Shown: positions 1,559 to 17,731 of the stretch, piece after piece | Layout: every line of letters begins with the position of its first letter | Position numbering within the stretch: the first letter of the stretch is position 1 | DNA from: a virus | Reading direction: 5' to 3' (one strand) | Virus record (IMG/VR): IMGVR_UViG_3300045988_136749 | Location: 1-17,731 of that record | DNA length: 17,731 nucleotides | The notes under the pieces: model-generated | Seen by the model: the letters and a program-made list of their open reading frames with translations, nothing else | What the model was told of the DNA's origin: nothing | Databases searched by the model: none | Position numbers and translations under genes: made by a program

Positions 1559-1786
1559 ATGGATGTAAATGCTATTTTGCAGGCAGTAGGTACGTTAGGT
1601 TTTCCAATCGTATGTGCCATAGCTATGGCTTGGTATGTCAAGTATATGACAGATCGAAACAGGGAAGATATTGACAAACTTAACACACAGCATCAGCAGG
1701 AAATGAAAGAAGTAACGACAGCATTAAACAACAACACATTGGCACTACAAAAGTTATCAGATGTTATTAGTAAAGAGGGTGATTAA
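1559..1786 (+). CDS. BhlA/UviB-family holin-like protein (75 aa)
   Basis: The SD AAAGGTGGTGA precedes ATG 1559. The N-terminal TM segment (LGFPIVCAIAMAWYV) followed by a charged coiled-coil tail is the BhlA/UviB (YvrJ-like) architecture. The upstream part of the tracked ORF (1436-1558) overlaps the promoter and is unlikely to be coding. Confidence 0.7.
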   Translation: MDVNAILQAVGTLGFPIVCAIAMAWYVKYMTDRNREDIDKLNTQHQQEMKEVTTALNNNTLALQKLSDVISKEGD

Positions 1787-2125: not shown

Positions 2126-2139
2126 TGAGGTGATTAAAA

Positions 2140-2733: not shown

Positions 2734-2984
2734 AAACAGTAATTTTAAACTCAAAAGGTATTGACGTAGTAGCATTACAATCTATCTTACGCTCACAAGG
2801 GTTCGTTGGGCAAGACGGAAAACCATTGTCAATAGACGGACATGCAGGCAATAATACAATTTTTGCTATAAATTCTTATCAAAAGATGTTACGAGCTTAC
2901 GACATTGAATGTGGCACAAATGGCCATAATGATTCTTCATGTGGTTCAAAAATGTGGGAGTGCTTGTTAGGTGGTGATTGCTAA
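2730..2984 (+). CDS. Stand-alone peptidoglycan-binding domain protein (PG_binding_1-like, 84 aa)
   Basis: GIDVVALQSILRSQGF...IDGHAGNNTIFAINSYQK fits the PG_binding_1 pattern, and the C-terminal tail carries four Cys. It is coupled on both sides: ATGA overlap upstream and TAATG overlap downstream. Confidence 0.65.
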   Translation: MKTVILNSKGIDVVALQSILRSQGFVGQDGKPLSIDGHAGNNTIFAINSYQKMLRAYDIECGTNGHNDSSCGSKMWECLLGGDC

Positions 2985-4084: not shown

Positions 4085-4085
4085 A

Positions 4086-4370
4086 ATGAAACAGGCAACA
4101 AAAGATGCATTATTAGCATTTGTCGGAGATAGAACAGACGACGAAGCTATCAGCATTTTGGAAACAATCAACGATGATGGTATCGAAGATGGTGAGGACT
4201 GGCATCAGAAATACGTTGATAATGACAAGGAATGGCGAGAAAGATATACAGCGAGATTCAAAGAGGGTGGAGCTCCACAGACAACAGTACCACCAGAACC
4301 AGAACCAGACCCTGAGGATGAAATGAAAAAGTTAACTATTGATACCGTCTTATACGGTGATAATAAATAA
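4086..4370 (+). CDS. Putative head scaffolding protein (gp7-like position)
   Basis: A 94-aa, strongly acidic, helical-looking protein immediately upstream of the major capsid gene, as in phi29. The assignment is by position and composition only. Confidence 0.5.
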   Translation: MKQATKDALLAFVGDRTDDEAISILETINDDGIEDGEDWHQKYVDNDKEWRERYTARFKEGGAPQTTVPPEPEPDPEDEMKKLTIDTVLYGDNK

Positions 4371-4385
4371 AGGAGTGATTTTTAT

Positions 4386-5771: not shown

Positions 5772-5787
5772 ATAGGAGAGTGACTTA

Positions 5788-7374
5788 ATGAGCTATATTG
5801 CACCAGATACAGACATATATTTGCTTGCTAATGTTGAATGTGATAAAAGTTACGATAATGTTAAATATTTTGCAACTAAAAATGCACAGCATACTTATAT
5901 GTCTAGTAAAATCGTTAAGTCATTTACGAACCAGAGTTACGGGCGTGTCAACAAAGGCACGTTCCGTCTCTTCTGTAAAGCAGATGACGTTTATCAATGC
6001 AATTATTTAATGTTTCAGAATACAGCTTTCGGAAACAAGTGGTTTTACGCTTTTATCAATAGCATAGAGTATGTTTCTAATAACACTTGTGAAGTAAGAT
6101 TTACTATCGACTTATTCCAGACATGGTTTCTGGATTGTACAGTTGGGCAATGCTTTGTAGAGCGTGAACACGTTACTGATGATAGTATAGGCGCACACAC
6201 TCTAAATGAGGATGTGCCTACTGGTGAAATGATTACAGCTATCGAAGAACAGTTGACAGAGTTTTCAAAACAGTACACATACGGTGTAGAAATCTGTATC
6301 AGTGATACACAGTTAAGTGGCATAGCTAATCAGCCAACATGGTTTGACAAGCCTGTTTTGAGCGGTATTTTTCAGGGTTCTAAGATTGGTACAACAGATA
6401 ACAGCGATGACTTATTAACGTTTCTGAATAATGTCATTTCAGCAGGCTATCAGTCAACCATTATACAGATTTTCACAATTCCAAAAATATTTGCCCCATC
6501 TGGAACAGATTCAAGAGTACAGACATCAAGAGAGTTACCTACTTTGCCAACAAAGTTCGGTAATTATACACCTTTAAACAACAGACTGTATTCTTCACCT
6601 TTCGTTGACTATGTTGTTTATGCTCCAACCGGTGACAAGATGATTTTACATCCAGAATTGTTCAGTAATTACGAACACAGAATAGTGACTTTTTCTGGTA
6701 ATCAAAGTGTTACACCACAGATAATGTGTATTCCAACGAATTATAAAATAACAGGTGGTACTAACAAGACTGAGGGTTACACCCTTAATTATGGCATAAA
6801 AGGTTCTTTTATGTATGACGCTTATCAAGCTGAGATTGCATCATATGGAGTAGGCGAACTCGGCGGAACTATTGCTCATTGGTTACCTAGAATATTAGGA
6901 ACAGGCAATAAAGTTGCTGGCTCTGGTTTTGGACTCGGTATGGCACTTGACGCAGGTGGCGGTCTTCCTCTGCTAGGTGCGGGTATTGCAGGAGTTAGCG
7001 CAGTAAGTAGTGCTGTTAGTACAGCATCAGACTACTTCAAAGAAACGCATGATACATCAAAATTAAGTGGTGCTTCTGGTGGTTCTGTTCTTTGGTCACA
7101 ACAGATACTAGACACTTTTGTACAGGTTCGTCAAGTAAGGGAAGAGTATGCACGAATAGCTGATAATTATTTCAGTATGTTTGGATATAAGGTATGCAGA
7201 TTGAAAGTTCCAAACATTGCCACTAGACCATCATGGAATTTTGTAAAGTGTTCTACTGTTGCTATAACAGGAGCAATTCCTGCTGATGCAGAAGAATTAA
7301 TAATGAGTGTTCTCAAAAAAGGTGTAACATTCTGGAAAACAAGCTTCGGAAACTACACAGCAAATAATAAGTAA
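5788..7374 (+). CDS. Tail knob / distal tube protein, phi29 gp9-like
   Basis: The N-terminal block YLMFQNTAFGNKWFYAFI...FTIDLFQTWF closely parallels the phi29 gp9 block YIMFQN..YGNKWFYAF...EIDVLQTW. It contains a long Gly/Ala/Leu-rich hydrophobic loop (aa ~354-414). Confidence 0.85.
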   Translation: MSYIAPDTDIYLLANVECDKSYDNVKYFATKNAQHTYMSSKIVKSFTNQSYGRVNKGTFRLFCKADDVYQCNYLMFQNTAFGNKWFYAFINSIEYVSNNTCEVRFTIDLFQTWFLDCTVGQCFVEREHVTDDSIGAHTLNEDVPTGEMITAIEEQLTEFSKQYTYGVEICISDTQLSGIANQPTWFDKPVLSGIFQGSKIGTTDNSDDLLTFLNNVISAGYQSTIIQIFTIPKIFAPSGTDSRVQTSRELPTLPTKFGNYTPLNNRLYSSPFVDYVVYAPTGDKMILHPELFSNYEHRIVTFSGNQSVTPQIMCIPTNYKITGGTNKTEGYTLNYGIKGSFMYDAYQAEIASYGVGELGGTIAHWLPRILGTGNKVAGSGFGLGMALDAGGGLPLLGAGIAGVSAVSSAVSTASDYFKETHDTSKLSGASGGSVLWSQQILDTFVQVRQVREEYARIADNYFSMFGYKVCRLKVPNIATRPSWNFVKCSTVAITGAIPADAEELIMSVLKKGVTFWKTSFGNYTANNK

Positions 7375-7387
7375 GGTGGTGATTAAA

Positions 7388-8305
7388 ATGGGCAGAAGTA
7401 GAAGTAAGCGGAGATTTTTTCAAAAAGTATATTCTTCTGGCATACAATATAATCATTGGTTGATGAAATTTGCAAGCAATGCTGTAGCCTCTTATCGCGT
7501 AGAGGGTTTACCAGTAGAAATAGATTCAAGATGGTTAGCGCTAAAGCTCTTTGAACTTGGTTCTATTGCTTTCTTTTACGATTCGGATGCAGGTGAGTAT
7601 GCTTGTATGCAGTATTCGTGCCTTGGTACTTATGACTGTTATGGCAATCCCACAAAAATACGTGTATGGAATCCATGGACAGGATATCAGAGAGAACTTA
7701 ACAAAGGTGAGTTTGTTATTATATGGGATAACATGCTTAGGGTTAATATGTACAACGCCTACATTGATTTGTCGTATAGATTATGGAGAATTGACGGCAC
7801 AATAGATACAAACTGTGTAGCACAGAAAACACCTGTTATTGTACAATGTTCGGAAAATGAACGATTAACGTTTAAAAATCTTCTTGCAGGCGTTGACGCT
7901 GACAATCCGTACTTAGCCGTTGGTGATAATCTTTCATTAAAAGACATTAAAGCGTTACAGCTCGGCGCACCACTTGTAGCACCAGAGTTAATGGAAGTAC
8001 AGCAGACACTTTACAACAGAGGAAATGCTCTACTAGGTATCACATCTGTTATAGTTCAGAAAAAAGAAAGAATGGTTAAATCAGAAGTAGACACAGCTAA
8101 TGCTGATGCACTTGCTAATAGACGGTCAAGAACAATGGCCAGAGATTACGCTAGTGTACAGATTAAGGAAATATTTGGTCTGGATGTAACTTGGATTTTT
8201 GATGAAGGCGATGAACCAAACAAGGAACCTGATGAAGGAAACAGAGAAGATTTTATCAGCCGTATAAAAGTAGCTAGTTTAGGCACTTCTGTTATAGAGA
8301 GGTGA
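7388..8305 (+). CDS. Head-tail connector (portal / upper collar), phi29 gp10-like
   Basis: About 305 aa, with a basic N-terminus (MGRSRSKRR). VAQKTPVIVQ and KKERMVKSEV correspond to phi29 gp10 NAQKTPVLIR and KKERMVTDEV. The SD GGTGGTGA precedes ATG 7388 (the tracked ORF begins at GTG 7376). Confidence 0.85.
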   Translation: MGRSRSKRRFFQKVYSSGIQYNHWLMKFASNAVASYRVEGLPVEIDSRWLALKLFELGSIAFFYDSDAGEYACMQYSCLGTYDCYGNPTKIRVWNPWTGYQRELNKGEFVIIWDNMLRVNMYNAYIDLSYRLWRIDGTIDTNCVAQKTPVIVQCSENERLTFKNLLAGVDADNPYLAVGDNLSLKDIKALQLGAPLVAPELMEVQQTLYNRGNALLGITSVIVQKKERMVKSEVDTANADALANRRSRTMARDYASVQIKEIFGLDVTWIFDEGDEPNKEPDEGNREDFISRIKVASLGTSVIER

Positions 8306-8309
8306 TAAC

Positions 8310-9122
8310 ATGAGTAGATACACAACAGAAGTCAGATATATCTGTGAATCTCTTGCAGGACTTGACAAGTCGGTTGGCTATTCAAATGTTAATGAAGTCA
8401 TTGAAAAGTCAAGAAACAGAATCTTTCCACCTTTTGAAATATTTGACGAAAGTTATCGACCTGTGCTTGAGACAAAGATTCTTAAACATTTTTACACTAG
8501 AGAAATCGGGTGTGAAACGTTCGGCCTGTGGCAGTTAAGGCTTGACGCTAAACTATCAGTTATTATGCCGTATTACAACAAGCTTTACAAAGCGATTAAC
8601 ATTGATATTCCTATTATCGATAACGTTGATATGAACGTTGAGCATAATATCGGCAGGAATGCTGATACAAAGGTTACAGACAAGACGGGTGTAACATCAA
8701 GTTCTAATACAACAGCAAACACATCGGATAAAGCAAGCACTACAACTAATACAAATACAACGTCTAACGAAAAGATTAGGCATAGTGATACGCCACAAGG
8801 CGGCTTGGAAGGACTAGAGTCAAACGAATATATGAGTGATGCGTCTATATACGACACGACACAAACAGCAAAAAACACCTCAACTAGCAGTAGTGAAACA
8901 AGTAACAGTAGTAACACAAGTAGCAGTAGCAACAGCAATAGCAACAGTGACACAAATGCAAAGAGTACAGAAGAATATGCAGAGCATAGATGGGGAAAAG
9001 AGGGCACTGTAACTTATATTAGCATGGTTAATGAGTACATCGAAAAGATGAAAAACATTGACGCTATGCTGATTCGTGAACTTGAAGAATTATTTATGCA
9101 AATATGGGATATATGGGAGTGA
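8310..9122 (+). CDS. Putative lower collar / tail tube protein (gp11 position) with S/T/N-rich low-complexity tracts
   Basis: The position directly after the connector gene matches phi29 gene 11. There is no sequence-level match I can assert. It carries two Ser/Thr/Asn-rich tracts at aa ~126-155 and ~185-219. Confidence 0.5.
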   Translation: MSRYTTEVRYICESLAGLDKSVGYSNVNEVIEKSRNRIFPPFEIFDESYRPVLETKILKHFYTREIGCETFGLWQLRLDAKLSVIMPYYNKLYKAINIDIPIIDNVDMNVEHNIGRNADTKVTDKTGVTSSSNTTANTSDKASTTTNTNTTSNEKIRHSDTPQGGLEGLESNEYMSDASIYDTTQTAKNTSTSSSETSNSSNTSSSSNSNSNSDTNAKSTEEYAEHRWGKEGTVTYISMVNEYIEKMKNIDAMLIRELEELFMQIWDIWE

Positions 9123-9128
9123 TTCAAT

Positions 9129-10394
9129 ATGAGTTTTAAACCTAAAAATTTTAGAGAGTGGTGTAATCATACGATACCTGTTTTGCCCCAGGTATACGGA
9201 GATGAATTAAGTTATTATGAGTTGCTCAACAAAGTAGTTGAAAAACTCAATGCTATTGGCATTACAGTCAACGAATTGATTGAATATGTCAATAACTATT
9301 TTGACTCAAAAGACTGGCAACAGATGGTAAACAACAAACTTGATTCGATGGTTGCAGATGGTACGCTTGATAATATTATTAACAAAAAAATTTTTGGTGA
9401 ATTGAACAGCAATGTCAATATGCTTTTAGATAACAGAAAGAATTTTAGAAACTGTAAAATTTTATGCATTGGTGACAGCTTCGGAAGAGGTGTTTACGAT
9501 AATAGCGAACACTTAGAAAGTTCATGGCCTACAAGATTAGGCGAGTATGCAAATGGTAGTATAATCTACAACTATTGCCAGAGCAACGCAGGATTTCTTG
9601 CATTAGATAAAGGGTTTTTAGCTCAGCTTACTAGAGCAAAAAATGATGGTCACACAGATGCACATATTATTCTAATAGAGGGTGGCCAAAATGACGGGTA
9701 TCTTGATACAACTAATTTGTTTAATGCTGTTGTAGAATGTATCAATTATGCTAAACAGAATTTTCCTAACGCTGTTATCTATGTGATTGGTGCAAATACT
9801 GGAACAGCTTCACAAATTACAAGGTCAAAACGTCATGATGTGTGGGAAATTATGCAAAGTGCATCAAATTTAACTGGTGTTACGTTTTGGATGGCTAATA
9901 TGTATGTATGGAATATTAATGATACTTTGAGTAGTGATGGTATTCATCTAAACCAGTTTGGCTATCAAATGTTAGCTTCTGTTATTTATCAATTTTTATG
10001 TGGTGCAGACCCGCAGATTAACGCTGATAGATGGCTTGGTTTTCAAACAGAGTGGGCAGGTGATAAAATTACAATGAAGAACACCTCAAACTTTTTTGAA
10101 ACTGTTAATCTACCAAACAATTTTTATCTTAACGGTGATACTCCTGCAATTGTTAAGGATATAGAACTTTCAAATAATTATGCAAATAGAGAAAGTCCTC
10201 TGGCTATTTCTGTTCCAATGGGTGTGAATGGTGAGGATATTAACGGTTGGATGATTTTAAGATTAAGAAATGGACGACTTGAGCTGTGCCCACTTGCTTA
10301 TAAAGGTTCGGGCGGATATGTAACTTTGAGTGGCTCACATGAATTTTTTATGCCGCAGTTTACAGCAACATTTCCGACATTATTGATTATGTAA
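9129..10394 (+). CDS. Tail appendage / receptor-binding protein with SGNH (GDSL) hydrolase domain
   Basis: N-terminal tail-fibre-like helical region (YGDELSYYELLNKVVEKLN...). SGNH blocks: CIGDSFGRG (GDS Ser ~117), EGGQND (block III), DGIHLN (block V, D-x-x-H). It is the last late gene, in the gp12-equivalent position. Confidence 0.75.
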   Translation: MSFKPKNFREWCNHTIPVLPQVYGDELSYYELLNKVVEKLNAIGITVNELIEYVNNYFDSKDWQQMVNNKLDSMVADGTLDNIINKKIFGELNSNVNMLLDNRKNFRNCKILCIGDSFGRGVYDNSEHLESSWPTRLGEYANGSIIYNYCQSNAGFLALDKGFLAQLTRAKNDGHTDAHIILIEGGQNDGYLDTTNLFNAVVECINYAKQNFPNAVIYVIGANTGTASQITRSKRHDVWEIMQSASNLTGVTFWMANMYVWNINDTLSSDGIHLNQFGYQMLASVIYQFLCGADPQINADRWLGFQTEWAGDKITMKNTSNFFETVNLPNNFYLNGDTPAIVKDIELSNNYANRESPLAISVPMGVNGEDINGWMILRLRNGRLELCPLAYKGSGGYVTLSGSHEFFMPQFTATFPTLLIM

Positions 10395-10412
10395 ATGTTT
10401 CACGTGAAACAT
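10395..10412. repeat. Perfect 18-bp palindrome ATGTTTCACGTGAAACAT
   Basis: It starts at the base after the tail-appendage stop codon. It is fully self-complementary and centred on CACGTG. Confidence 0.8.
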
Positions 10413-10415
10413 AAC

Positions 10416-10444
10416 AAAGGGAGCCTTTTGGACTCCCTTTTTTC
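10416..10444. terminator. Bidirectional rho-independent terminator between the convergent late and early operons
   Basis: AAAGGGAGCC-TTTT-GGaCTCCCTTT hairpin. It is followed by TTTTTTC on the plus strand and by TTTGTTATGTTT on the minus strand. It lies exactly where + and - transcription converge. Confidence 0.75.
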
Positions 10445-10579
10445 TTAATGCGCTAATGCAATACACAAAAGCAGTGAATAAACGCACATTATAAAAAACA
10501 ATGTTAATTCGTTGAAAAGCCTTGCACTTATGGCTGATATCATAATCAACGCAAAAAACAAATTAAGTGTATTAGTCAT
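10445..10579 (-). CDS. Small hydrophobic membrane protein (44 aa), not in the ORF track
   Basis: MTNTLNLFFALIMISAISARLFNELTLFFIMCVYSLLLCIALAH has two hydrophobic segments. The ATG directly follows the upstream stop (TAAATG), with the SD GAGGAGGG about 10 nt upstream. It is the last early gene before the terminator. Confidence 0.5.
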   Translation of the reverse strand: MTNTLNLFFALIMISAISARLFNELTLFFIMCVYSLLLCIALAH

Positions 10580-10810
10580 TTAAATGGAACCCTCCTCATA
10601 CAATAATACGTATAAGGTGTCATTTTCAATTGCAAGACGAAATACATGCTTGTTTGCGAGTTCTTGATGTTTCATAACTAATTTCTTAAAATCCTGTGCA
10701 GTTACAGGGGTTGTACTTTGAAGTATTGATAGTTCTTTGCTATACCATATATTAGCACAAACTTTTACTTTTCCATGATCCAGTGCGATGCACAAATCTT
10801 TAACTGTCAT
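10580..10810 (-). CDS. Hypothetical early protein (76 aa)
   Basis: ORF in the early-operon orientation, with the SD AAAAGGAGAAAG upstream of the ATG. No motif recognised. Confidence 0.55.
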   Translation of the reverse strand: MTVKDLCIALDHGKVKVCANIWYSKELSILQSTTPVTAQDFKKLVMKHQELANKHVFRLAIENDTLYVLLYEEGSI

Positions 10811-10837
10811 TATTTCTTTCTCCTTTTCTTCATTCTT

Positions 10838-11059
10838 CTACACAACTGCCTTTACTATAAAATATCTTTTCGCCCGTTCTATAACAGTACCTAGGTCACG
10901 ACTTCCGTATCCCTCATACGAACTATCGCTATTAATAGGATGATATATTATAGTGTAGTAAGGGTTATCAAAGTATGTAGTACCTATTTTAATTGCTAAA
11001 AAGTCAACAGCAATCTTGTCGCTGTTATTGTCTTTATCAAAACTTAAATCATTATACAC
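10838..11059 (-). CDS. Hypothetical early protein (73 aa)
   Basis: GTG start preceded by AAAAGGAGAAAT. It overlaps the upstream gene by 8 nt. No motif recognised. Confidence 0.5.
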   Translation of the reverse strand: MYNDLSFDKDNNSDKIAVDFLAIKIGTTYFDNPYYTIIYHPINSDSSYEGYGSRDLGTVIERAKRYFIVKAVV

Positions 11060-11237
11060 GCTTATTTCTCCTTTTCTTCATTCTCCTGCATGCTTCACTC
11101 ACATATGCCTTATGGTTTGAATCATTATACTCAGCAACAGACGCTTTCATTATTTCATATCTGTATTGAAAGTATTCTTCACAAGCTGAATGACAATTTA
11201 AACATCTTTCACTACAATCTTTACAGGGTGCTTTCAT
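11052..11237 (-). CDS. Small Cys-rich (putative zinc-binding) protein with basic C-terminal tail (61 aa)
   Basis: N-terminus CKDCSERCLNCHSAC (5 Cys plus 1 His within 15 residues) and C-terminus RRMKKRRNKRV. The SD AGGAAGTGA precedes the ATG. Confidence 0.6.
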   Translation of the reverse strand: MKAPCKDCSERCLNCHSACEEYFQYRYEIMKASVAEYNDSNHKAYVSEACRRMKKRRNKRV

Positions 11238-11241
11238 ATTA

Positions 11242-11412
11242 TCACTTCCTTAAATATAACATTATTAACACAATAGTCCACCATATCACTACTGCTCCAG
11301 ATACACCAATAATAACAATCATATCTGGCCTTAAAGTGAGTAAATATAACAGGAATACTAGAAACAGCAATATTAGAACTAAAATGCTGATAAATACAAA
11401 CTTTTTAAGCAA
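11242..11412 (-). CDS. Small two-TM membrane protein (56 aa), not in the ORF track
   Basis: TTG start 6 nt after the SD AGGTGA. MLKKFVFISILVLILLFLVFLLYLLTLRPDMIVIIGVSGAVVIWWTIVLIMLYLRK has two clear hydrophobic helices. The stop lies 4 nt before the next gene's ATG. The plus-strand ORF 11090-11434 covering this region looks spurious. Confidence 0.55.
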   Translation of the reverse strand: MLKKFVFISILVLILLFLVFLLYLLTLRPDMIVIIGVSGAVVIWWTIVLIMLYLRK

Positions 11413-11421
11413 TTTTTTCAC

Positions 11422-11577
11422 CTACCATTTATAAGAATAATTAACGCCCTGTGAACTTTTTCTATTTTTAAAGTACGGAACTTTTTTAGCTTTTCTAATG
11501 TTCCTGCAAACTGTATACCAGTCAAGTGTAAATTTTTTTACTTCGGTATCATTCATTCCAAAAACTATTCTTTGCAT
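11422..11577 (-). CDS. Small basic protein (51 aa), not in the ORF track
   Basis: The ATG overlaps the dUTPase stop (TAATG), with the SD GGGGTGAG upstream. The sequence is MQRIVFGMNDTEVKKFTLDWYTVCRNIRKAKKVPYFKNRKSSQGVNYSYKW. It fills an otherwise unexplained 150-nt gap in a tightly packed operon. Confidence 0.45.
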   Translation of the reverse strand: MQRIVFGMNDTEVKKFTLDWYTVCRNIRKAKKVPYFKNRKSSQGVNYSYKW

Positions 11578-12122
11578 TATCTCACCCCACTTGAACCAAA
11601 ACCATTTCTATCATTATCTGTTAAATCTTCCACTTCAACCAGTTCAATTTCTGGCTGATTTCTTACAACCCTAAACTGTGCAATTCTATCACCTCTTGTT
11701 ATCACCGTATCTTCAACAGCATATGCAGGAAAACACCATTCATCATTTCTACCACAATATGAATTATCAATGATTCCCATACTGTTAGTCATTAAGACAT
11801 GATATTTTCTGAAAGTTGATGAACGCGGTAATACGTGTGCTTCATATCCTTTTGGTAGTTTCATTGCAACTCCTAACGGAATATTAACATATTCGCCTCT
11901 TTTAATGCGTACTGTTTTACCTGCTTTTAAATCAATCCAATCGCCGAGGGCATATTTTTCTGGCAGGACTGAATTAAAATATCCATGATTCTTTGCTAAT
12001 ACTCTAATTTTTTCGCGTGTGAAGAATAGTTTTCTACAGCTTCTTTGATAGACAGAATATCGTGATATAGATAAGACAGTTCTTCGTATGTAAGATAACA
12101 ATTTTTCTTTAGTTTTTTTCAT
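11577..12122 (-). CDS. dut: dUTPase, YncF/YosS (SPbeta-type) family, with a ~35-aa basic N-terminal extension
   Basis: GDWIDLKAG, PLGVAMKLPKGYEAHVLPRSS, TNSMGIIDNSYCG, GDRIAQFRVV and DRNGFGSSG match the conserved trimeric dUTPase motifs, closest to B. subtilis YncF/YosS as I recall them. The SD AAGGGGTGA precedes ATG 12122 (the tracked ORF begins at GTG 12131). Confidence 0.85.
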   Translation of the reverse strand: MKKTKEKLLSYIRRTVLSISRYSVYQRSCRKLFFTREKIRVLAKNHGYFNSVLPEKYALGDWIDLKAGKTVRIKRGEYVNIPLGVAMKLPKGYEAHVLPRSSTFRKYHVLMTNSMGIIDNSYCGRNDEWCFPAYAVEDTVITRGDRIAQFRVVRNQPEIELVEVEDLTDNDRNGFGSSGVR

Positions 12123-12402
12123 ATAATTCACCCCTTAATACGTTAATATATTTTTCTACAAAAGCTTTATAAAATAAATCTGCATCATAATATGTATATG
12201 AATTCATCAATATTTTTAAAGCATTTTCCAACTTGTTCATTCTTATTACACGCTTAATTGCAAGCAACGCCTGCTTTGCATCATATACTCTAATGTATTC
12301 GTTGTAATCTTCATCTAGCATAGTGTAAATATCTTTTCTTATTTGACTGTCTGATTTACCGCATTTGATACGTTGATTCAACAAGTAAAACACCTCCATC
12401 AA
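12109..12402 (-). CDS. Hypothetical early protein (~91-97 aa)
   Basis: Operon-oriented ORF overlapping the 3' end of the polymerase gene. The best SD, GGAGGTG (12397-12391), favours the TTG start at 12384. No motif recognised. Confidence 0.5.
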   Translation of the reverse strand: MMEVFYLLNQRIKCGKSDSQIRKDIYTMLDEDYNEYIRVYDAKQALLAIKRVIRMNKLENALKILMNSYTYYDADLFYKAFVEKYINVLRGELYEKN

Positions 12403-14326
12403 TTCTTTTTGGTATTAATTTACATGGTACATTTAAGCCGATTTTAAAATCATCAAATGTTCTGATGATAGGCCTGTGCGTAACTTGGTTGAAAAGAAAT
12501 CTGTTAACTGGTGTATTTTCTTTGTATTCTTCATACACAGCTTTTCCAGACATTGACAATTCAAACAAGTCTTTGCATCGCTGTGGCATTCCTGCACACT
12601 TAATGTTGTTGTAGGGTTCTTCTATCTTCTGCAAATCTTCATGCGTAACGTGCTCAATGTATGTTTTCTGCCTTGCGAAAATAGCCCTATCCCAACAGGA
12701 TTCAAGTTTCCATGCACAGAAATCAGTTTCATGTACTTTAATTCCTGTAATATGTTCTGGTGGTAAGTCACAGTGAATACTGTCTGTATCTGCATAGATG
12801 AAACCATGTTCTTCAACACCATAATAGTTTGCTTGAGCAGCTCTAATTGTAAAGTTTCTGGCGTAACTAGTAATAGCTGAACCAACAGGGATATAACCTG
12901 CTTCTTTGTCTTTAGCTGTAATGTTGATAAATCCTATTGAATTATCATCCTTAACGTACGCTAGTTTAAATGAAGAATCAGTAGATGAAGCCATTTTGCC
13001 GTACAAGTTATTTAAAAACAACTTAGCAAGTGTACGTCTAGCACCTTTGCTAGTCATTTTTATTTTTGCGTATTTATCGATGTATTCATCGAATATACCA
13101 ATTTCTGAATAAAAGTAACACCCGTCAAGAATCTCAAAGTCAACAAGCTCATAATGTTCAAGAATAAGAAAGTAATCTGTCATAGTCAATGTTAGTTCTA
13201 CTCTTGTATCACAGGTATTTCCATCAATGTCTATGTACTTGTCATAATACTTGCCTGTAGCTTTGTCAAACACATCAGACGTTTTTAAAGACTCTGTGCC
13301 CTTGTATAACATATTTCCTTTTATCTGAATGAATGGCAACTTACCACTTTTCAAATAGAATTTTGTCCTTATTCTGATAAAGAAATACACATTGTTTTGC
13401 AATGCTCTGTCTGGAATATAGTTACCAGACCAGAACATCGGTTTTCCGACAGGATATCTATTGCCGGACATTGAGTGCATCATAGATGGGTACAAAGAAT
13501 TTACATCCGCTGTAGTTCCATTTGTGTATATCTTGTTTTCTTTTCCTTTAACAAGATAACACCATCCTCCTCTATATGATTTTCTAACATAAGCATCAAC
13601 ATTCGACTTTCCATATATCTCAGAATCCAGTTCTATTTGCGTGACGTCTGGAAATCTCCTTTTCCAATCATCTTCTCCGACTATTTGTTTATATTCAGCA
13701 AGACAACAACTGCCTATTGTGAGTCGGTTATGACCTTCTTGAAAAACAATTTCAAGCGCTTCTTTGACAACAAGAACATCATTAGCTATATATTTTTTTT
13801 CTTCTGGTTTAATTTCACACCCTGCATAACGAAAACCTGTATATTCCATGTCAAGCTTCTGATGCTTAGTTTTAAAGGCTTTTCCTATTTCTTTCACAGA
13901 GAACGGAAGTAGCTTCAATGAATCCCGAAATTCTATTACCTTATTATTAATCTTGACTTTGATACTATACCATTGCCCCATTTCAGAAATAGTATACTTG
14001 AACGTATTGTTATACATTTCTTTGTCATGTTTCCATTCACAAGAATTAACACCATCGCCAGTATATGCTTGTTTTAGATGTAATTTATTCAGAAAAAACG
14101 ATATCCAAAAATTGCCGTCAAATTTTAGGTTATGAAAATAAACTATCAGATTAGATTTTAAATCACTTAAATATTCCCATGTTTCATCTATTGAATGCAA
14201 TATAGAAACATCTTCCGTGAACATTTCTACAATGGCAGATGCCCAAACCTCCGTATTTTTCTGGCCTTCATAGACTGTCGTTTCAAAGTCCCCAACCAGA
14301 TACTTTACTTTTTTAGGCCTTGCCAT
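12356..14326 (-). CDS. Protein-primed family B DNA polymerase (phi29 p2-like)
   Basis: Exo I DFETT, Exo II FHNLKFDGNF, Exo III YIANDVLVV, motif A DVNSLYPSMM, motif B KLFLNNLYGKMAS, motif C YADTDSIH and the KxY-type RQKTYIE all closely parallel phi29 DNAP. The SD GGTGGTGA precedes ATG 14326 (MARPKK...), 4 nt after the terminal-protein stop. The tracked ORF extends to 14353. Confidence 0.95.
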   Translation of the reverse strand: MARPKKVKYLVGDFETTVYEGQKNTEVWASAIVEMFTEDVSILHSIDETWEYLSDLKSNLIVYFHNLKFDGNFWISFFLNKLHLKQAYTGDGVNSCEWKHDKEMYNNTFKYTISEMGQWYSIKVKINNKVIEFRDSLKLLPFSVKEIGKAFKTKHQKLDMEYTGFRYAGCEIKPEEKKYIANDVLVVKEALEIVFQEGHNRLTIGSCCLAEYKQIVGEDDWKRRFPDVTQIELDSEIYGKSNVDAYVRKSYRGGWCYLVKGKENKIYTNGTTADVNSLYPSMMHSMSGNRYPVGKPMFWSGNYIPDRALQNNVYFFIRIRTKFYLKSGKLPFIQIKGNMLYKGTESLKTSDVFDKATGKYYDKYIDIDGNTCDTRVELTLTMTDYFLILEHYELVDFEILDGCYFYSEIGIFDEYIDKYAKIKMTSKGARRTLAKLFLNNLYGKMASSTDSSFKLAYVKDDNSIGFINITAKDKEAGYIPVGSAITSYARNFTIRAAQANYYGVEEHGFIYADTDSIHCDLPPEHITGIKVHETDFCAWKLESCWDRAIFARQKTYIEHVTHEDLQKIEEPYNNIKCAGMPQRCKDLFELSMSGKAVYEEYKENTPVNRFLFNQVTHRPIIRTFDDFKIGLNVPCKLIPKRIDGGVLLVESTYQMR

Positions 14327-14330
14327 ACTA

Positions 14331-15038
14331 TCACCACCCGTTTTCTGATTCATTCATCATTTCAGCCTGCACCTTTTCTTCAAATGATAACGGCGCACCG
14401 TTGATTATTGAAAGTAGTTCGTCTGTTGCTTGGTTTATGACTGCAACTGATGAACCCCACAGAACAGCCGAAACAATAACGTCTATGTCATTCATAGTTC
14501 TGGACGCTTCAACTAACCTTCTTCCGACCTCTGTCATACCAATGTCATTAATCATATTCAGCAGGAAAGACTGCATACTTTTTGAATATGATAATGCTTC
14601 TTTTCTCCTGCTTCTGTTCAAATCAACAGATTTGCCTAATGAAGATGTGAAGTCTGTAGCCACTTTTTGATATTCTGCTTCTCTTCTTTTACGTTCCTGC
14701 TCAATTTCTTCGTCTGTAGCATCCTTATAGCCATAGAACAAATCTTCCTCTTCTGGCGTTAATGAGCCATATCTTGAAAGAAATTCGTCGTTGAAGTTAC
14801 TAAACGCTATATCCTCTTCGTGTGGAAGATTTGCTTCAGCTTTAAGAGTTTCAACGTCTATCTTTTTAAGCTTATTTACGTAAGCTCTTAATTCCTTACC
14901 TCTGAAACCTTTTGCTTTAATCTGGCGCAAAGTCGGTATGTTTGTTGGAACATATTGTACACCTTGCTTTTTAAGCTTGCGCTCTAAGCGCTTTATACGA
15001 TTTCGCTCACGTTCGTAAGCAGTTAGTTTTCTTGCCAT
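14331..15038 (-). CDS. Terminal protein (phi29 p3-like), by position and composition
   Basis: It lies immediately upstream of the protein-primed polymerase and is translationally close-coupled to it. It is 235 aa with a highly basic N-terminus (MARKLTAYERERNRIKRLERKLKKQ), reminiscent of the phi29 TP N-terminal DNA-binding region. The genome also has ITRs. Confidence 0.7.
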   Translation of the reverse strand: MARKLTAYERERNRIKRLERKLKKQGVQYVPTNIPTLRQIKAKGFRGKELRAYVNKLKKIDVETLKAEANLPHEEDIAFSNFNDEFLSRYGSLTPEEEDLFYGYKDATDEEIEQERKRREAEYQKVATDFTSSLGKSVDLNRSRRKEALSYSKSMQSFLLNMINDIGMTEVGRRLVEASRTMNDIDVIVSAVLWGSSVAVINQATDELLSIINGAPLSFEEKVQAEMMNESENGW

Positions 15039-15071
15039 GTTGCACCTCTACAACTTCCTAGATTACCAGAG

Positions 15072-15284
15072 TTAAAAACCACAATCATCTAAAAGGTAAA
15101 GAATATTACATTCGTAATATGGAATCCACTTAGACGATATTATACGTTCGTTGGATAAAATATAGTTTTCGTTAGTATCTGATAAATTCAAGTAAATCTT
15201 ATCGTCATAACCTGCTAGAAATAACTGTATTATATCACACACTTTTACATTGTGTTTTATATTAAGCAATTCATCAAAGTTCAT
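15072..15284 (-). CDS. Hypothetical early protein (70 aa) in the phi29 gene-4 position
   Basis: The SD GTGAGGTGA precedes the ATG. It lies between the SSB-like and TP genes. No similarity to p4 that I can assert. Confidence 0.55.
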   Translation of the reverse strand: MNFDELLNIKHNVKVCDIIQLFLAGYDDKIYLNLSDTNENYILSNERIISSKWIPYYECNILYLLDDCGF

Positions 15285-15302
15285 TTTTTCACCTCACTAT
15301 GC

Positions 15303-15347
15303 AAAAAAAAAGAAAATATCGACGCCCACTGTATGTCGTGAGCGCCA
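15303..15347 (-). terminator. Intra-operon rho-independent terminator or attenuator after the SSB-like gene
   Basis: Minus strand: GGCGCTCAC-GACATACA-GTGGGCGTC (9-bp stem including two G-U pairs), followed by GATATTTTCTTTTTTTTTGC. Confidence 0.55.
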
Positions 15348-15375
15348 ATGCACTTATTTAATTACCTGCTTTAAA

Positions 15376-15726
15376 TTATAAGCTGTCAACGTCAAGTACG
15401 CAATCAACGTACTTGCGTCCGGCCTTTGACTGACCAGAGATTTTCTTAACAGGGAATGGGAATCCCTGCATGACAGTTTCAATGTCTTTGATACTTCTCT
15501 TGAATGTTCTAGACTGAGTACTGTATACCATGTTATCAGTCGTGATGATGGACATAAGTTCGGACGTTGTGCCGTCCTCTTTTACGTCGACAAACTCAAG
15601 ATATCCTGCAACATTGAGAACGTCGCCGTCATCGAGTGTCTTGACAGTTTTAATTGTCGGAGCTTTTGTCAAAAGGTATTCTTCTACTTTTGTAAAGTTA
15701 CGTGTTTCGTTTTTAATTGTAATCAT
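15376..15726 (-). CDS. Single-stranded DNA-binding protein, phi29 p5-like
   Basis: The pattern LDDGDVLNVAGY...EDGTTSELMSIITTDNMVYSTQSRTF...FPVKKISGQSKAGRKYVDCVLDV parallels phi29 p5 LPDGTIIEANAI...EETVTTIFAADGSLYSAISKTV...FKVKVVQGTSSKGNVFFSLQL. The size and the position between p6-like and TP match. The SD AAAGGAA is best spaced for ATG 15726; ATG 15732 and 15771 are alternatives. Confidence 0.65.
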   Translation of the reverse strand: MITIKNETRNFTKVEEYLLTKAPTIKTVKTLDDGDVLNVAGYLEFVDVKEDGTTSELMSIITTDNMVYSTQSRTFKRSIKDIETVMQGFPFPVKKISGQSKAGRKYVDCVLDVDSL

Positions 15727-15798
15727 AGTCATTATTCCTTTCTTTTTTTGTGTGTTGTATCGCGTGAACATAAAACAAATTTCGATTAACTAGTTACA

Positions 15799-16080
15799 TT
15801 ATTCTGACTGAGCTTTAGCTCTAGCTGGAAGAATCTCAGCTAATTCTAAAAACTTTTCTTCTGTCATTCCGTACAACTCTTCCTGTACCGCTACTTCTGT
15901 TACTTTCAGAGGGCGTACCTCTGCATGTTCTTTTGTGATTGCTTTCAGTGCATCGTCTGCTGAAAGTTCGCCTGACAGCTTATATTCAACTGTCTTAATT
16001 TCATCACTTGCGATGTCATATACTGTCGCTTTCGCTTTTGTACTCGTGATGGTACGAGTAACCATTCTCTTTCTTGCCAT
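15799..16080 (-). CDS. Histone-like dsDNA-binding protein, phi29 p6-like
   Basis: 93 aa. MARKRMVTRTITSTKAKATVYD... and ...ELYGMTEEKFLELAEI parallel phi29 p6 ...REITKTTVNVAKMV... and ...EVYELPVEKFLEVATV. It is the first gene after a consensus promoter, has the SD AAGGAGG, and precedes the SSB as in phi29. Confidence 0.65.
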   Translation of the reverse strand: MARKRMVTRTITSTKAKATVYDIASDEIKTVEYKLSGELSADDALKAITKEHAEVRPLKVTEVAVQEELYGMTEEKFLELAEILPARAKAQSE

Positions 16081-16135
16081 TGTTTAGGCCTCCTTGTTTG
16101 TTTGCTTTTTTATTCGTTTAACGTCCGCCGACGAA

Positions 16136-16188
16136 TTGACAGGACGGGAGTCGAACCCGTCGGAAGTGTTCCGCAAACCTGTCTGTCA
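16136..16188 (-). ncRNA. tRNA-like minihelix 1 (acceptor-like stem, small hairpin and T-arm); not a complete tRNA
   Basis: Minus strand: TGACAGA-CAGGTTTG-[CGGAA-CAC-TTCCG]-[ACGGG-TTCGACT-CCCGT]-CCTGTCA-A. The T-arm has a 5-bp stem and the 7-nt loop TTCGACT (GGTTCGACTCC matches the tRNA T-loop consensus). The 6/7-bp acceptor-like stem closes directly on the T-stem and is followed by an unpaired A. It has no D-arm, no canonical anticodon arm and no encoded CCA. Confidence 0.55.
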
Positions 16189-16218
16189 ACCTTTCTATAT
16201 GTAAGAAAGGAGGAGAGA

Positions 16219-16243
16219 GTAAAGAGTTGTCGGTTCTCTTTAC
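16219..16243 (-). promoter_or_regulatory. 5'-terminal stem-loop of the p6-operon transcript
   Basis: Minus strand: GTAAAGAG-aaccgacaa-CTCTTTAC, a perfect 8-bp stem. It begins at the predicted transcription start, about 7 nt after the -10 box. Confidence 0.5.
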
Positions 16244-16250
16244 ATTATTA

Positions 16251-16279
16251 ATTATATCACTGTTGTACTGAAATGTCAA
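16251..16279 (-). promoter_or_regulatory. Early promoter, perfect consensus with extended -10
   Basis: Minus strand: TTGACA (16279-16274), an exact 17-nt spacer, TATAAT (16256-16251), preceded by TG (gTGaTATAAT). An A-rich UP-like tract (AAAATAAATAAAAAATTCTTGAAAAAA) lies upstream. Confidence 0.75.
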
Positions 16280-16364
16280 CAGTTTTTTCAAGAATTTTTT
16301 ATTTATTTTGCACTATGGTTAGATATGACTAACTTCGCACATATTACGCTATCGAACGAATGTT

Positions 16365-16574
16365 CTAATAAGTCTCATGCTCAAAACCAACGTCGCAGTC
16401 TGTAAAAGCATCGATAAATTGCCACTGCTTAGAAAATATTCTAATGTAAGGGAGTCCACCAATTTGACGAGCATCGTCTTGTAAATATATATTTAATTCA
16501 TCACACCCTACTATTTTAAGTGGGTGCGAAAATTTAATACACATTTCTCCACACTTTGCACCTTTAACATACAC
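16365..16574 (-). CDS. Hypothetical early protein (59-69 aa)
   Basis: Operon-oriented ORF. The GTG start at 16574 overlaps the upstream stop; ATG at codon 11 is an alternative start. No motif recognised. Confidence 0.5.
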   Translation of the reverse strand: MYVKGAKCGEMCIKFSHPLKIVGCDELNIYLQDDARQIGGLPYIRIFSKQWQFIDAFTDCDVGFEHETY

Positions 16575-16675
16575 TATTCATCATCATCCTTTCCGTATAG
16601 CAACTGGCCTATTAACTCAGCTACTATCAAAATTATTATTGCAAGGCCTGCTATTGACAGACCTGCAAAAATCAC
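16574..16675 (-). CDS. Small single-TM peptide with acidic tail (33 aa), not in the ORF track
   Basis: The GTG start overlaps the upstream stop (GTGA) and AAAGG lies 7 nt upstream. The sequence is MIFAGLSIAGLAIIILIVAELIGQLLYGKDDDE. Its stop TAG overlaps the next gene's GTG. It fills the 97-nt gap between the tracked ORFs. Confidence 0.45.
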   Translation of the reverse strand: MIFAGLSIAGLAIIILIVAELIGQLLYGKDDDE

Positions 16676-16899
16676 TTTCTAACCTTTCTGTAGGCTTTAA
16701 ACCAAATGTTTTCGACCATGTAATTCTTAAAATCAGCGAATGTCCCATTCCCACATTTGAATTCGTTCTTTATTCTTTCTTCATCATATTCTGAATAAAA
16801 GCCGTCCTCGTTAGCTTTTCTTATAGCTGTTTGAAAAGTACAGCCATATAAATTCATGCAGTTAAACAATATCTTTCTTGAATACTCCCGATATACCAC
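16672..16899 (-). CDS. Hypothetical early protein (75 aa)
   Basis: The GTG start lies 6 nt after the SD GAGGAGGAA. No motif recognised. Confidence 0.55.
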   Translation of the reverse strand: MVYREYSRKILFNCMNLYGCTFQTAIRKANEDGFYSEYDEERIKNEFKCGNGTFADFKNYMVENIWFKAYRKVRK

Positions 16900-16902
16900 A
16901 AA

Positions 16903-17085
16903 TTATTCCTCCTCATCATCTATATAGTCTGAACAGCATTTTTCACGTTCCTCGTAAAACTTTACAAGCTTTTTATATCGCAAGTCAAAGTTTGAACCTC
17001 GTGATGGATAACCCTCACGTTCACATTCGTACACAAGTTCTTTAACATCATCGACAAAAGTACTCCATAATTCATCTAGTGTCAT
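16903..17085 (-). CDS. Small acidic early protein (60 aa)
   Basis: The best start is ATG 17085 (MTLDELW...), 7 nt after the SD GGAGGGAGG; the tracked ORF extends to 17124. It has 18 Asp/Glu against 9 Lys/Arg and ends in DDEEE. Confidence 0.6.
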   Translation of the reverse strand: MTLDELWSTFVDDVKELVYECEREGYPSRGSNFDLRYKKLVKFYEEREKCCSDYIDDEEE

Positions 17086-17206
17086 AATTAAACCTCCCTC
17101 CATGTAAACGTTCAGTTTCATCAATTTCGATTGATTGGCTGAACCAAACTGATTTTGCTATTTTCCAAGCATATTTTCCTGTTTTTGTATTTCCTTTTTT
17201 TGTCAT
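17072..17206 (-). CDS. Small basic protein (44 aa), not in the ORF track
   Basis: ATG 17206 lies 8 nt after the SD AGGAGG (17220-17215). The sequence is MTKKGNTKTGKYAWKIAKSVWFSQSIEIDETERLHGGRFNYDTR. It overlaps the next gene's start by 14 nt. Confidence 0.45.
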   Translation of the reverse strand: MTKKGNTKTGKYAWKIAKSVWFSQSIEIDETERLHGGRFNYDTR

Positions 17207-17248
17207 AGTTCTTACCTCCTACTTCTTACATGGTCACTATTGACCGAG

Positions 17249-17288
17249 TGCCACCCGCAGGAGTCGAACCTGCGGTACACCTTGTGGC
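17249..17288 (-). ncRNA. tRNA-like minihelix 2 (acceptor-like stem plus T-arm only)
   Basis: Minus strand: GCCAC-AAGGTGTAC-[CGCAGG-TTCGACT-CCTGCG]-G-GTGGC-A. The 6-bp T-stem carries the same loop TTCGACT and the same 11-mer GGTTCGACTCC as element 1. The 5-bp closing stem is followed by an unpaired A. It starts at the last base of the stop codon of the first early gene. Confidence 0.55.
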
Positions 17289-17515
17289 TAGTTCTGTCTT
17301 TCTTTTTTGCGTCTCATTTTCCACATTCTGTCAGCAAAATCAATCGCGGACATTATTTGATCATGAATGCGAAAGCCCTCAACAATATCAAATTGATATA
17401 TGCCATTTTTGAAACCCTGCATTCGGGACATATAAATTTTTGCTTGTTCATAATCTTCATTCATAGAAGCGATTACATAATTAACACGTTCTTTTTCAAA
17501 ATATGTTTTTTTCAT
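17288..17515 (-). CDS. Hypothetical first early protein (75 aa)
   Basis: The SD AAAGGAGGAAAC precedes the ATG, and it is the first ORF downstream of the right-end promoter. No motif recognised. Confidence 0.6.
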   Translation of the reverse strand: MKKTYFEKERVNYVIASMNEDYEQAKIYMSRMQGFKNGIYQFDIVEGFRIHDQIMSAIDFADRMWKMRRKKERQN

Positions 17516-17550
17516 TTTTTGTTTCCTCCTTTATCTCTCTTTCTGTTTAT

Positions 17551-17579
17551 ATTATATCACATAGTACACAAAATGCAAG
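17551..17579 (-). promoter_or_regulatory. Right-end early promoter with extended -10
   Basis: Minus strand: TTGCAT (17578-17573), 16-nt spacer (or CTTGCA with 17), TATAAT (17556-17551), preceded by gTGa. It shares GTGATATAAT with the promoter at 16251-16279. Confidence 0.65.
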
Positions 17580-17700
17580 ACGTAATTTTGCATAAAAATA
17601 GTACGTGGTTTGCACAAATACTTGTAAAAAATGTCACATAATAATTCTTGTAATTTTGCTCAAAAAACATACCTAACTAGCGCTATCATTTTGGGGAAAA

Positions 17701-17731
17701 TGACAGTCAAAGTTGAAATGAAATACCACTC
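17701..17731. repeat. Right inverted terminal repeat (ITR)
   Basis: Reverse complement of nt 1-31 at 30/31 positions. The mismatch is at 17709 (A, pairing with T, versus C at left position 23). Confidence 0.9.

Follow-up and report, generated by a model that had tools for sequence, protein, structure and literature searches.

Does a phage with protein-primed replication keep the upper half of a tRNA in its early messages and, if so, for what purpose? The question is raised by a viral genome, IMG/VR record IMGVR_UViG_3300045988_136749, of which the stretch analysed here (positions 1 to 17,731, hereafter the window) carries two tRNA-like minihelices on its minus strand. The first (element 1) is in the leader of the gene for a p6-like dsDNA-binding protein, and the second (element 2) is between two small early open reading frames (ORFs). 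Both had been noticed in a preliminary description made from the letters of the DNA. The elements are almost certainly conserved and selected mimics of the tRNA top half. We give a probability of roughly 0.5 to the further proposal that they are cleavage signals for host RNase P and RNase Z which punctuate the early mRNA, and would thus be a phage analogue of the t-elements of plant mitochondria. The clade carrying them consists of phi29-like phages infecting gut Firmicutes.

Read from 16188 to 16136 on the minus strand, element 1 is UGACAG-A-CAGGUUUGC-GGAA-CAC-UUCC-GACGGG-UUCGACU-CCCGUC-CUGUCA-A. Element 2, read from 17288 to 17249, is GCCAC-AAGGUGUA-CCGCAGG-UUCGACU-CCUGCGG-GUGGC-A. The parts of both are listed in Table 1, and the T-arm and acceptor-like stem at 16136-16188 are as first described. 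Each element has an acceptor/T-stem stack of about 12 bp, a 7-nt loop of the UUCRANY type and the G53-C61 closure, together with the single-stranded 3' discriminator without CCA that is expected of an RNase Z substrate. The 11-mer GGTTCGACTCC, common to the two, has exactly two occurrences in the window, at 16147-16157 and 17260-17270, each on the minus strand. The shuffle expectation is 0.04 and two or more copies appeared in none of 200 shuffles, so that the recurrence is indeed beyond chance, as had been argued. Element 2 alone folds as drawn at -20.2 kcal/mol (z = -2.84, with 0 of 200 shuffles as good), and the fold reaches z = -3.7 when the downstream hairpin is included.

Relatives of the window were sought through the DNA polymerase protein because a blastn search of the early region against 50,697 phage records gave no match. 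The polymerase-based search of IMG/VR returned 80 loci, labelled here by L-numbers, with polymerase identities of 51-97%. All close relatives and several of the distant loci have the T-loop motif on the polymerase strand, and element 1 was present in all 27 close relatives having the upstream region. The leader of element 1 was aligned for 27 sequences and element 2 for 13.

In the alignment of element 1, standard pairs occupy 95.1% of the cells, compared with 38-56% when the partners are slid. Two-sided changes occur at seven pairs of the leader, a result reached by none of 500 shuffles. Compensation is seen at three of the six T-stem pairs (G-C/G-U/A-U, A-U/G-C and C-G/U-A), and the acceptor stem is invariant within this shallow group. 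For element 2 the paired cells amount to 95.5%, against 39-51% with slid partners; the compensatory changes fall in four of the seven T-stem pairs, two of the five acceptor pairs and two of the five pairs of the downstream hairpin. Its covariation score is 0.391, against 0.216 in shuffled alignments, none of which (0/500) reached the observed value. Conservation and covariation of the stems in relatives had been set beforehand as the test by which the element could be refuted, and they were found in both elements. The stems are under selection, as seen from the covariation, the pairing relative to slid controls and the shuffle scores.

The division of the stems in element 1 differs from that first given. 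The top-half geometry of the preliminary description stands, but in place of its 7+5 reading the relatives favour an acceptor of 6 bp and a T-stem of 6 bp. The sixth T-stem pair covaries (G-C in 14 sequences, G-U in 9, A-U in 2), and the A-C mismatch noted at first is seen only in the window and in a single relative. At -1/73 the window could form a U-A pair, which is not conserved, C being found at -1 in six relatives. The RNAalifold consensus of the 27 homologues contains UGACA/UGUCA and the T-arm. The minimum-energy fold of the window sequence by itself shifts the acceptor register by five bases (GACAGG/CCUGUC) because the sequence holds GACAGACAGG. This shifted register was rejected, as the substitutions of the relatives (GGUCGG, GGCUGG, GGCCGG) break it and do not break UGACAG/CUGUCA.

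The same anatomy extends over the family. The acceptor and T stems total 12 bp, or 11 bp with a mismatch in one subfamily, while the junction in the 5' strand moves among 7+5, 6+6 and 5+7 (element 1 being 6+6, element 2 5+7 and the others 6+6 or 7+5). A constant stack with a moving junction would be the expected outcome of selection by enzymes measuring the distance between elbow and acceptor end. The linkers, of 8-35 nt, differ greatly in length between subfamilies and contain no anticodon stem-loop. In one lineage (L035, L036) a D-arm-like UAGCCAAAAGGUAAGGC is kept, with no anticodon arm, which suggests descent from a full tRNA. The discriminator is unpaired and mostly A, in many lineages followed by UUC, and no family member has CCA at positions 74-76.

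The T-loop is UUCGAYU or UUCAAYU in most lineages, and UGCAANU in L029, L030/33/34/59 and L057. A GG is present in the linker of every element with a canonical loop, and is missing from the elements with the variant loop except that of L057. Its presence is consistent with mimicry of the G18-G19 side of the tRNA elbow. The variant loop GGUGCAANUCC, in which U55 is replaced by G, was located at 482-524 and 868-909 of L029, 1702-1751 of L030, 221-270 of L033, 1592-1641 of L034, 418-464 of L057 and near 1920 of L059. In these lineages GUGCAAG or GGCGGUGCAA is repeated in the linker or just downstream, which hints at alternative pairings or at a protein-binding site.

A structural descriptor was used to survey the window, the 80 contigs and five other public phage records (four related phages, among them a cultured phage of Clostridium symbiosum, and phi29). 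It required a loop U[U/G]CRANN closed by G-C, a contiguous 3' strand of 12 nt, and a T-stem of 5-7 bp with an acceptor of 7-5 bp, at least 11 of the 12 pairs being formed and at most two of them G-U; block shuffles served as the control. An earlier version, which accepted any 6-of-7 acceptor pairing within 70 nt, was discarded since a chance match was calculated to be near certain. There were 60 matches on the sense-assigned strand and one on the opposite strand, where shuffles lead one to expect about 1.4 per strand. The single opposite match is in MT835854, whose polymerase is on the minus strand, so that this match is also sense. The few matches inside coding sequence (L004, L040, L047) were judged spurious. 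The descriptor found no element in phi29. When it was relaxed, the clades of 60% and 55% polymerase identity and phi29 gave background only, with five matches on one strand and four on the other.

It is important to place these elements among known RNA classes. ARAGORN predicted neither a tRNA nor a tmRNA gene, whether in the window or among 42 related loci, and Rfam at gathering thresholds found no family in the window or in five divergent loci. The Rfam tRNA model had no match either at gathering or at E <= 10, in agreement with the early judgement that this is not a decoding tRNA. With permissive settings the only Rfam match apart from noise was a 17-nt piece of the T-arm to tmRNA (RF00023; 14.4 bits, E = 0.003; 11.2 bits in another scan). 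Assignment to tmRNA was rejected: the match is confined to the T-arm and far below the gathering value of 47, ARAGORN is negative for tmRNA, and the G3-U70 pair is missing, position 3-70 being A-U in element 1 and C-G in element 2. An intrinsic terminator was rejected as well, neither element being in the terminator scan and the stems being followed by UUCG or CUCG and no U run.

Two features are shared with t-elements: a T-arm of the form GGTTCRANYCC in a non-canonical fold, and a sense-strand position in an untranslated region (UTR) or between cistrons, beside a protein gene. No Rfam or sequence relationship to plant mitochondrial t-elements was found and the elements are phage-borne, so that the relation is one of analogy and not of family membership. 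The expectation that nothing alike had been described for phi29-like phages also held: no Rfam family covers the elements, full-text literature searches gave no phage counterpart, and a 2024 review of phi29-like phages is silent on them (PMC11476376).

The position of the elements in the early operons is equally regular. Apart from the coding matches mentioned above, they are found on the sense strand in the gaps between early ORFs, in two or three copies where listed by genome: two in the window, three in L055 and two each in L029, L062 and L066. The p6 start follows 50-80 nt downstream of the element in the clade of the window, in that of the cultured CS229P phages, in L029, and at each of the two p6 paralogues of L062 and L066; in total, at least five diverged lineages have p6 as the gene whose start codon comes after the element. 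The ORF behind element 2 varies among the close relatives, with at least three unrelated ones seen. A small hairpin begins 2-3 bases past the discriminator in most lineages and is followed by an A-rich spacer, a strong Shine-Dalgarno (SD) sequence and ATG, while the CS229P-like clade has downstream only a 4-bp GGGC/GCCC pairing across an A-rich loop. In L055 the cassette of tRNA-like element, UUC, CACCUGUAACAGGUG, AGAUUAUA and SD occurs three times, before three different ORFs.

Several details of the cassette may be added. The arrangement of element, UUC, a hairpin starting with CAC, AGAUUAUA, SD and ATG is located at 171-217, 695-743 and 1267-1309 of L055, 2357-2399 of L062, 2025-2073 of L066 and 1029-1074 of L083, and its UUCCAC junction is kept despite differing hairpin sequences. 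In L062 and L066 the arms of the downstream hairpin repeat the acceptor-stem sequence, so that alternative folds are possible. These two loci have two p6-like paralogues, each with its own upstream tRNA-like element (about 2447 and 4595 in L062; 2122 and 4385 in L066). Perfect palindromes of the type ATGTTTCACATGAAACAT are repeated upstream of p6 in L055 (about 1850-2000) and L057 (about 480-600); they resemble operators and take the place that the tRNA-like element has in other lineages.

The closest cultured relatives are the Clostridium phages CS229P1-3 of Clostridium_Q symbiosum, with 63% polymerase identity, compared with 35% for phi29. In CS229P2 (L081, OP172773) an unannotated element is located at 1917-1969, where it fills most of the 173-nt gap between coding sequence (CDS) 9 and the p6-like CDS 10, the only large gap in an otherwise tightly packed early operon. 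The homologues of p6, SSB (single-stranded DNA-binding protein) and terminal protein are all labelled hypothetical in that record. In the CS229P clade only about five bases separate the end of the upstream ORF from the element, and inspection by eye shows no promoter between this ORF, the element and p6, a promoter scan not having been made there. With the upstream ORF adjoining and no promoter evident, the element of this clade is intercistronic and not strictly a leader.

Among the roles suggested at the outset, the analysis favours processing of early mRNA by host RNases because the elements are intercistronic, restricted to the sense strand, devoid of an encoded CCA and followed by a hairpin, SD and start codon. 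In the proposed mechanism host RNase P would cut at the 5' edge of the acceptor stem, that is, 5' of U16188 and of G17288, and host RNase Z would then cut just past the discriminator, after A16136 and A17249, the route taken in Firmicutes by CCA-less precursors. The downstream mRNA, mostly that of p6 (here with SSB), would be freed from the upstream sequence. Its new 5' end would be 2-3 bases before the small hairpin and near a strong ribosome-binding site, which would stabilise the message; an arrangement of 5' stem-loop and SD is known to stabilise mRNA in Bacillus and other Firmicutes. The protein p6 is needed in very large amounts in phi29, and this demand would explain the repeated association of the elements with p6. 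The excised RNA of about 40-55 nt would probably gain CCA and could have a role of its own.

The known properties of the enzymes agree with such a scheme. Hairpins of acceptor and T-stem-loop are efficient substrates of RNase P, which also has natural non-tRNA substrates in the phage M3 and C4 RNAs and some mRNAs (PMC11143913). This enzyme acts as a ruler: starting from the tRNA elbow, it measures a set length along the stacked T-arm and acceptor (PMC4919913). In B. subtilis, RNase Z cuts 3' of the discriminator only if the precursor lacks CCA; a 5' extension of more than about 30 nt makes RNase P the first to act, and this enzyme can cleave CCA-less precursors in vivo (PMC1874595). The t-elements of plant mitochondria, screened by means of GGTTCRANYCC, give rise to mRNA termini, the 5' ones by cleavage with RNase Z and the 3' ones by that with RNase P, and after release they carry non-templated C and A (PMC1920247).

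The leader of p6 in the window contains further structure around element 1. The transcript of the p6 operon probably starts near 16243, downstream of the sole perfect promoter of the early region, whose -10 box is kept in 27 of 27 close relatives. Two hairpins (H1 and H2, Table 1) precede the element, H2 ending one base (U16189) before the 5' acceptor strand. A CUCCUCC (16211-16217, minus strand) immediately before H2 is complementary to the p6 SD, and RNAalifold pairs its CUCC with GGAG. It may act as an anti-SD which masks the p6 SD until it is removed by RNase P; it is not found in the leader variants of L012, L017, L020 and L053. In the hairpin that follows the discriminator, the U-A of pair 126/133, present in 20 sequences, is replaced by C-G in seven, a compensatory change. 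An outer helix UUCG/CGAA around this hairpin was dropped, as L006 has lost it and as it is incompatible with the inner helix, which covaries.

Several observations weigh against cleavage as the function of the elements. Two large sister clades and phi29 have none, so that they are not essential to phi29-like biology. In the clade of the window, p6 has its own perfect promoter and a 5' hairpin, and processing is not obviously needed there. At element 2 the UAG stop of the upstream 75-residue ORF shares its G with the first base of the element, and an RNase P cut would take this last base of the stop codon; a TAG or TAA immediately 5' of the element is common among relatives. Several lineages have the UGCAANU loop with U55 changed to G, mostly without the linker GG. 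Finally, the strict conservation of the T-loop would suit a mimic acting in trans equally well.

Such a mimic is the best of the alternatives, though a decidedly less probable one. The minihelix itself, tailed with CCA, would bind or titrate some host factor by which the upper half of tRNAs is recognised, for example a toxin acting on the acceptor or CCA end, a modification enzyme, or RNase P or Z, and the p6 position would be chosen as the most heavily transcribed early site. This would account for the T-loop, linker GG and 11-12 bp stack being kept more strictly than the formation of a hairpin requires, for several copies per genome and for the location of an element downstream of a consensus promoter; it is compatible with processing and indeed requires it. 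With no anticodon arm, the elements could not be decoys for anticodon nucleases. The G3-U70 pair permits charging of a minihelix by alanyl-tRNA synthetase, and neither element has it (A3-U70 in element 1 and C3-G70 in element 2). Whole sister clades lack the element, and a role in cis is indicated by the constant hairpin, SD and ATG downstream and by the repeated link to p6 among lineages with unrelated element sequences. A stronger form of this idea, in which the excised and CCA-tailed minihelices would be abundant decoys against a host defence or toxin, or would throttle tRNA maturation, with mRNA processing only secondary, appears rather improbable.

Only slightly behind the trans-acting mimic, and also doubtful, is an uncut structure acting in cis: a stabiliser or insulator of the 5' UTR, a translation enhancer or a protein-binding site controlling p6, tRNA-shaped by descent only. 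It would fit the position in the p6 leader near the SD, the covariation of the flanking hairpins and the possible pairing of CUCCUCC with the SD. However, a generic stabiliser needs no invariant UUCGANU, fixed stack, free discriminator and absence of CCA across 51-97% polymerase identity, and the same cassette stands before unrelated ORFs.

It is very unlikely that the elements are decaying and functionless relics of phage tRNA genes, or attP-type 3' fragments of host tRNAs. The D-arm-like UAGCCAAAAGGUAAGGC of L035 and L036 would agree with this, as would the tRNAs that some other phi29-related clusters are predicted to encode (PMC11476376). Relics are nevertheless largely refuted by the covariation, since compensatory changes maintain the stems; both acceptor strands are present, and the strand, position and downstream architecture are non-random. 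An attP origin is further opposed by the nature of the genome, a protein-primed linear replicon with terminal inverted repeats and no integrase among the ORFs scanned, and by the 3' half of element 1, which among 185,579 species matches only two unrelated genomes, neither of them a Firmicute. That the p6 leader with element 1 is the prohead RNA (pRNA), of which phi29-like phages need one of about 120-174 nt from a strong early promoter, is scarcely credible: none was recognised in the genome and the leader has about 150 nt and a three-way junction, but a whole-window Rfam gathering scan was empty, permissive scans (E <= 10) of 1-1500 and 15900-17731 gave no pRNA match, and the element is found two to three times per genome and, in other clades, between ORFs without a promoter of its own.

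Table 1. Position of the tRNA-like elements, adjoining signals and genes in the window
Feature	Position	Strand	Remarks
Element 1, tRNA-like minihelix in p6 leader	16136-16188	-	Based on sequence, motif statistics, conservation, covariation and RNAalifold consensus
Element 1, acceptor strands	5' 16183-16188; 3' 16137-16142	-	
Element 1, linker	16162-16182	-	21 nt; invariant GG 16178-16179; small hairpin GGAA-CAC-UUCC 16162-16172
Element 1, T-arm	T-stem 5' 16156-16161; T-loop 16149-16155; T-stem 3' 16143-16148	-	Loop UUCGACU
Element 1, discriminator	16136	-	Unpaired A, then UUC
Element 2, tRNA-like minihelix between two small early ORFs	17249-17288	-	
Element 2, acceptor strands	5' 17284-17288; 3' 17250-17254	-	GCCAC and GUGGC
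Element 2, linker	17276-17283	-	AAGGUGUA; near-invariant GG 17280-17281
Element 2, T-arm	T-stem 5' 17269-17275; T-loop 17262-17268; T-stem 3' 17255-17261	-	5' strand CCGCAGG
Element 2, discriminator	17249	-	A, then CUC
Small ORF upstream of element 2	17288-17515	-	75 aa; UAG stop 17288-17290
Hairpin after element 2	17232-17245	-	GGUCA-AUAG-UGACC, 3 nt after discriminator; 2/5 pairs compensatory
SD after element 2	17215-17219	-	GGAGG, then ATG 17206 of ORF 17072-17206
Early promoter of p6 operon	16251-16279	-	TTGACA, 17-nt spacer, TG-n-TATAAT; 12/12 consensus
Leader hairpin H1, 5'-terminal	16221-16241	-	AAAGAG/CUCUUU; 98% of cells paired, one compensatory pair (27 sequences)
Leader hairpin H2	16190-16210	-	CCUUUCU/AGAAAGG; 86% paired; other sequence instead in 4-5 relatives
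Hairpin after element 1	16122-16133	-	CGUC-GGCG-GACG, 2 nt after discriminator; 99% paired
p6 SD	16089-16095	-	AAGGAGG
p6-like dsDNA-binding protein gene	15799-16080	-	ATG at 16080, stop included; phrog_6370, E = 5e-11
SSB-like gene	15376-15771	-	Weak phi29-SSB match
Terminator-like hairpin 3' of SSB-like gene, before next ORF	15318-15349	-	12-bp stem, then U-rich tract; consensus scan only
Protein-primed family-B DNA polymerase	12356-14353	-	phrog_1907, E = 2e-132; Pfam DNA_pol_B_2
Early genes	~17515 down to 10445	-	
Late genes	1436-10394	+	Include major head protein, tail protein, upper collar connector and lower collar
gp16-like packaging ATPase	426-1472	-	

The ends of the window form an inverted terminal repeat of about 31 nt (1-31 and 17701-17731) with one mismatch, GAGTGGTATTTCATTTCAACTT[C/T]GACTGTCA, which makes the window a complete linear phi29-like genome of 17,731 bp. 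The repeat is much longer than the 6 bp of phi29. The identities proposed earlier for genes of the p6 operon were upheld by the matches of the polymerase and the p6-like protein and by the weaker match of SSB. The N-terminus of the p6-like protein, M-x-R-K-x-x-V-T-R-T-I, is common to the p6 homologues of related loci. Terminator prediction found none in the window between the far-upstream early promoter region and p6. With this, and with the terminator-like hairpin after the SSB gene, which suggests an attenuated short transcript, a short p6-SSB mRNA is plausible.

A few other features of the genome may be mentioned. A candidate for the first early promoter, likely from its sequence, is at 17551-17578 on the minus strand (TTGCAT, 16-nt spacer, TG-a-TATAAT). 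It is flanked by repeated TGCAAA-like motifs, and the first early ORF lies about 40 nt further downstream; the consensus scan missed it because only three of six positions match in the -35 hexamer. An early-strand ORF downstream of the polymerase (11577-12131, minus) matches the dUTPase family (phrog_135, E = 1.6e-32). The left end, 1-425, is non-coding and adjoins the 3' side of the gene for the gp16-like packaging ATPase. Within it are a long hairpin with a T-run behind it (about 262-310, minus strand) and, at 213-247, two tandem palindromic units GAGAATG(G/A)TTCTCATTT. The minus strand of 30-262 folds with z = -2.0 and has no match to the Rfam pRNA model. These 425 nt are a more plausible candidate location of the pRNA than the p6 leader.

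If the proposed cleavage is true, this would be, to our knowledge, the first phage that keeps tRNA top halves purely as punctuation, and it would borrow the RNase P, RNase Z and CCA machinery of the host to build the mRNA of its most abundant early protein. As a new RNA family, the elements are a candidate for Rfam and for the annotation of gut viromes. They also provide natural examples of minimal substrates for RNase P and RNase Z, with a shifting junction and a constant total length. The cassettes of element, hairpin and SD could be of use as compact self-processing units where several genes are to be expressed in Gram-positive bacteria. The idea is open to direct test in a cultured pair, Clostridium symbiosum DA229 and the element-bearing phages CS229P1-3.

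The underlying principle is already known from tRNA punctuation, from mascRNA and the TMERs, and from t-elements. In animal mitochondria, and in the thrU-tyrU-glyT-thrT-tufB operon, intercistronic tRNAs are excised by RNase P and RNase Z (in E. coli by RNase P and RNase E). The marks there are functional decoding tRNAs, whereas the phage elements keep only the half recognised by the enzymes. The mascRNA at the 3' end of MALAT1 and the TMERs of murine gammaherpesvirus 68 are non-decoding modules cut by RNase P and/or RNase Z, tailed with CCA and defining the ends of neighbouring RNAs. They differ from the phage elements in being eukaryotic, in their full cloverleaf-like folds and in the non-coding nature of the neighbouring RNAs.

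Other systems share part of the structure. For RNase P a minimal acceptor/T-stem-loop geometry suffices, as in its model substrates, and the M3 RNA of phi80 and the C4 antisense RNAs of P1 and P7 are phage RNAs matured by the host enzyme (PMC11143913). Unlike the elements described here, M3 and C4 are small non-coding RNAs of coliphages, do not stand between cistrons before a structural or replication gene, and have no canonical T-loop with an elbow mimic. The tRNA-like domain of tmRNA (RF00023) also combines an acceptor stem and a T-arm with a reduced D-loop and no anticodon arm; the phage elements are without the mRNA-like domain, tag reading frame, pseudoknots and G3-U70. Partial, non-decoding tRNA mimicry, in some cases phage-encoded, is likewise seen in YrlA and Y RNA-like RNAs (PMC4201824) and in the tRNA-like structures at the 3' ends of plant RNA viruses. 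YrlA, however, has a long Ro-binding stem and is a free-standing gene (PMC4201824), and the plant-virus structures are located at the genome 3' end, contain pseudoknots and are aminoacylated, none of which applies to the phage elements.

The closest likeness is to the t-elements, which are partial mimics with a GGTTCRANYCC T-arm and an acceptor-like stem, lie in sense beside protein genes, do not decode and have no encoded CCA (Forner et al. 2007, PMC1920247). They belong to plant organelles and the present elements to phages of Firmicutes, the origin is independent, and their cleavage has been mapped while that of the phage elements is inferred. The phage elements are smaller (40-66 nt), are mostly without D and anticodon arms, and have a dedicated hairpin and SD cassette. 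If they are cut as proposed, the principle of t-elements and tRNA punctuation would extend from organelles and eukaryotic viruses to the phages of Firmicutes.

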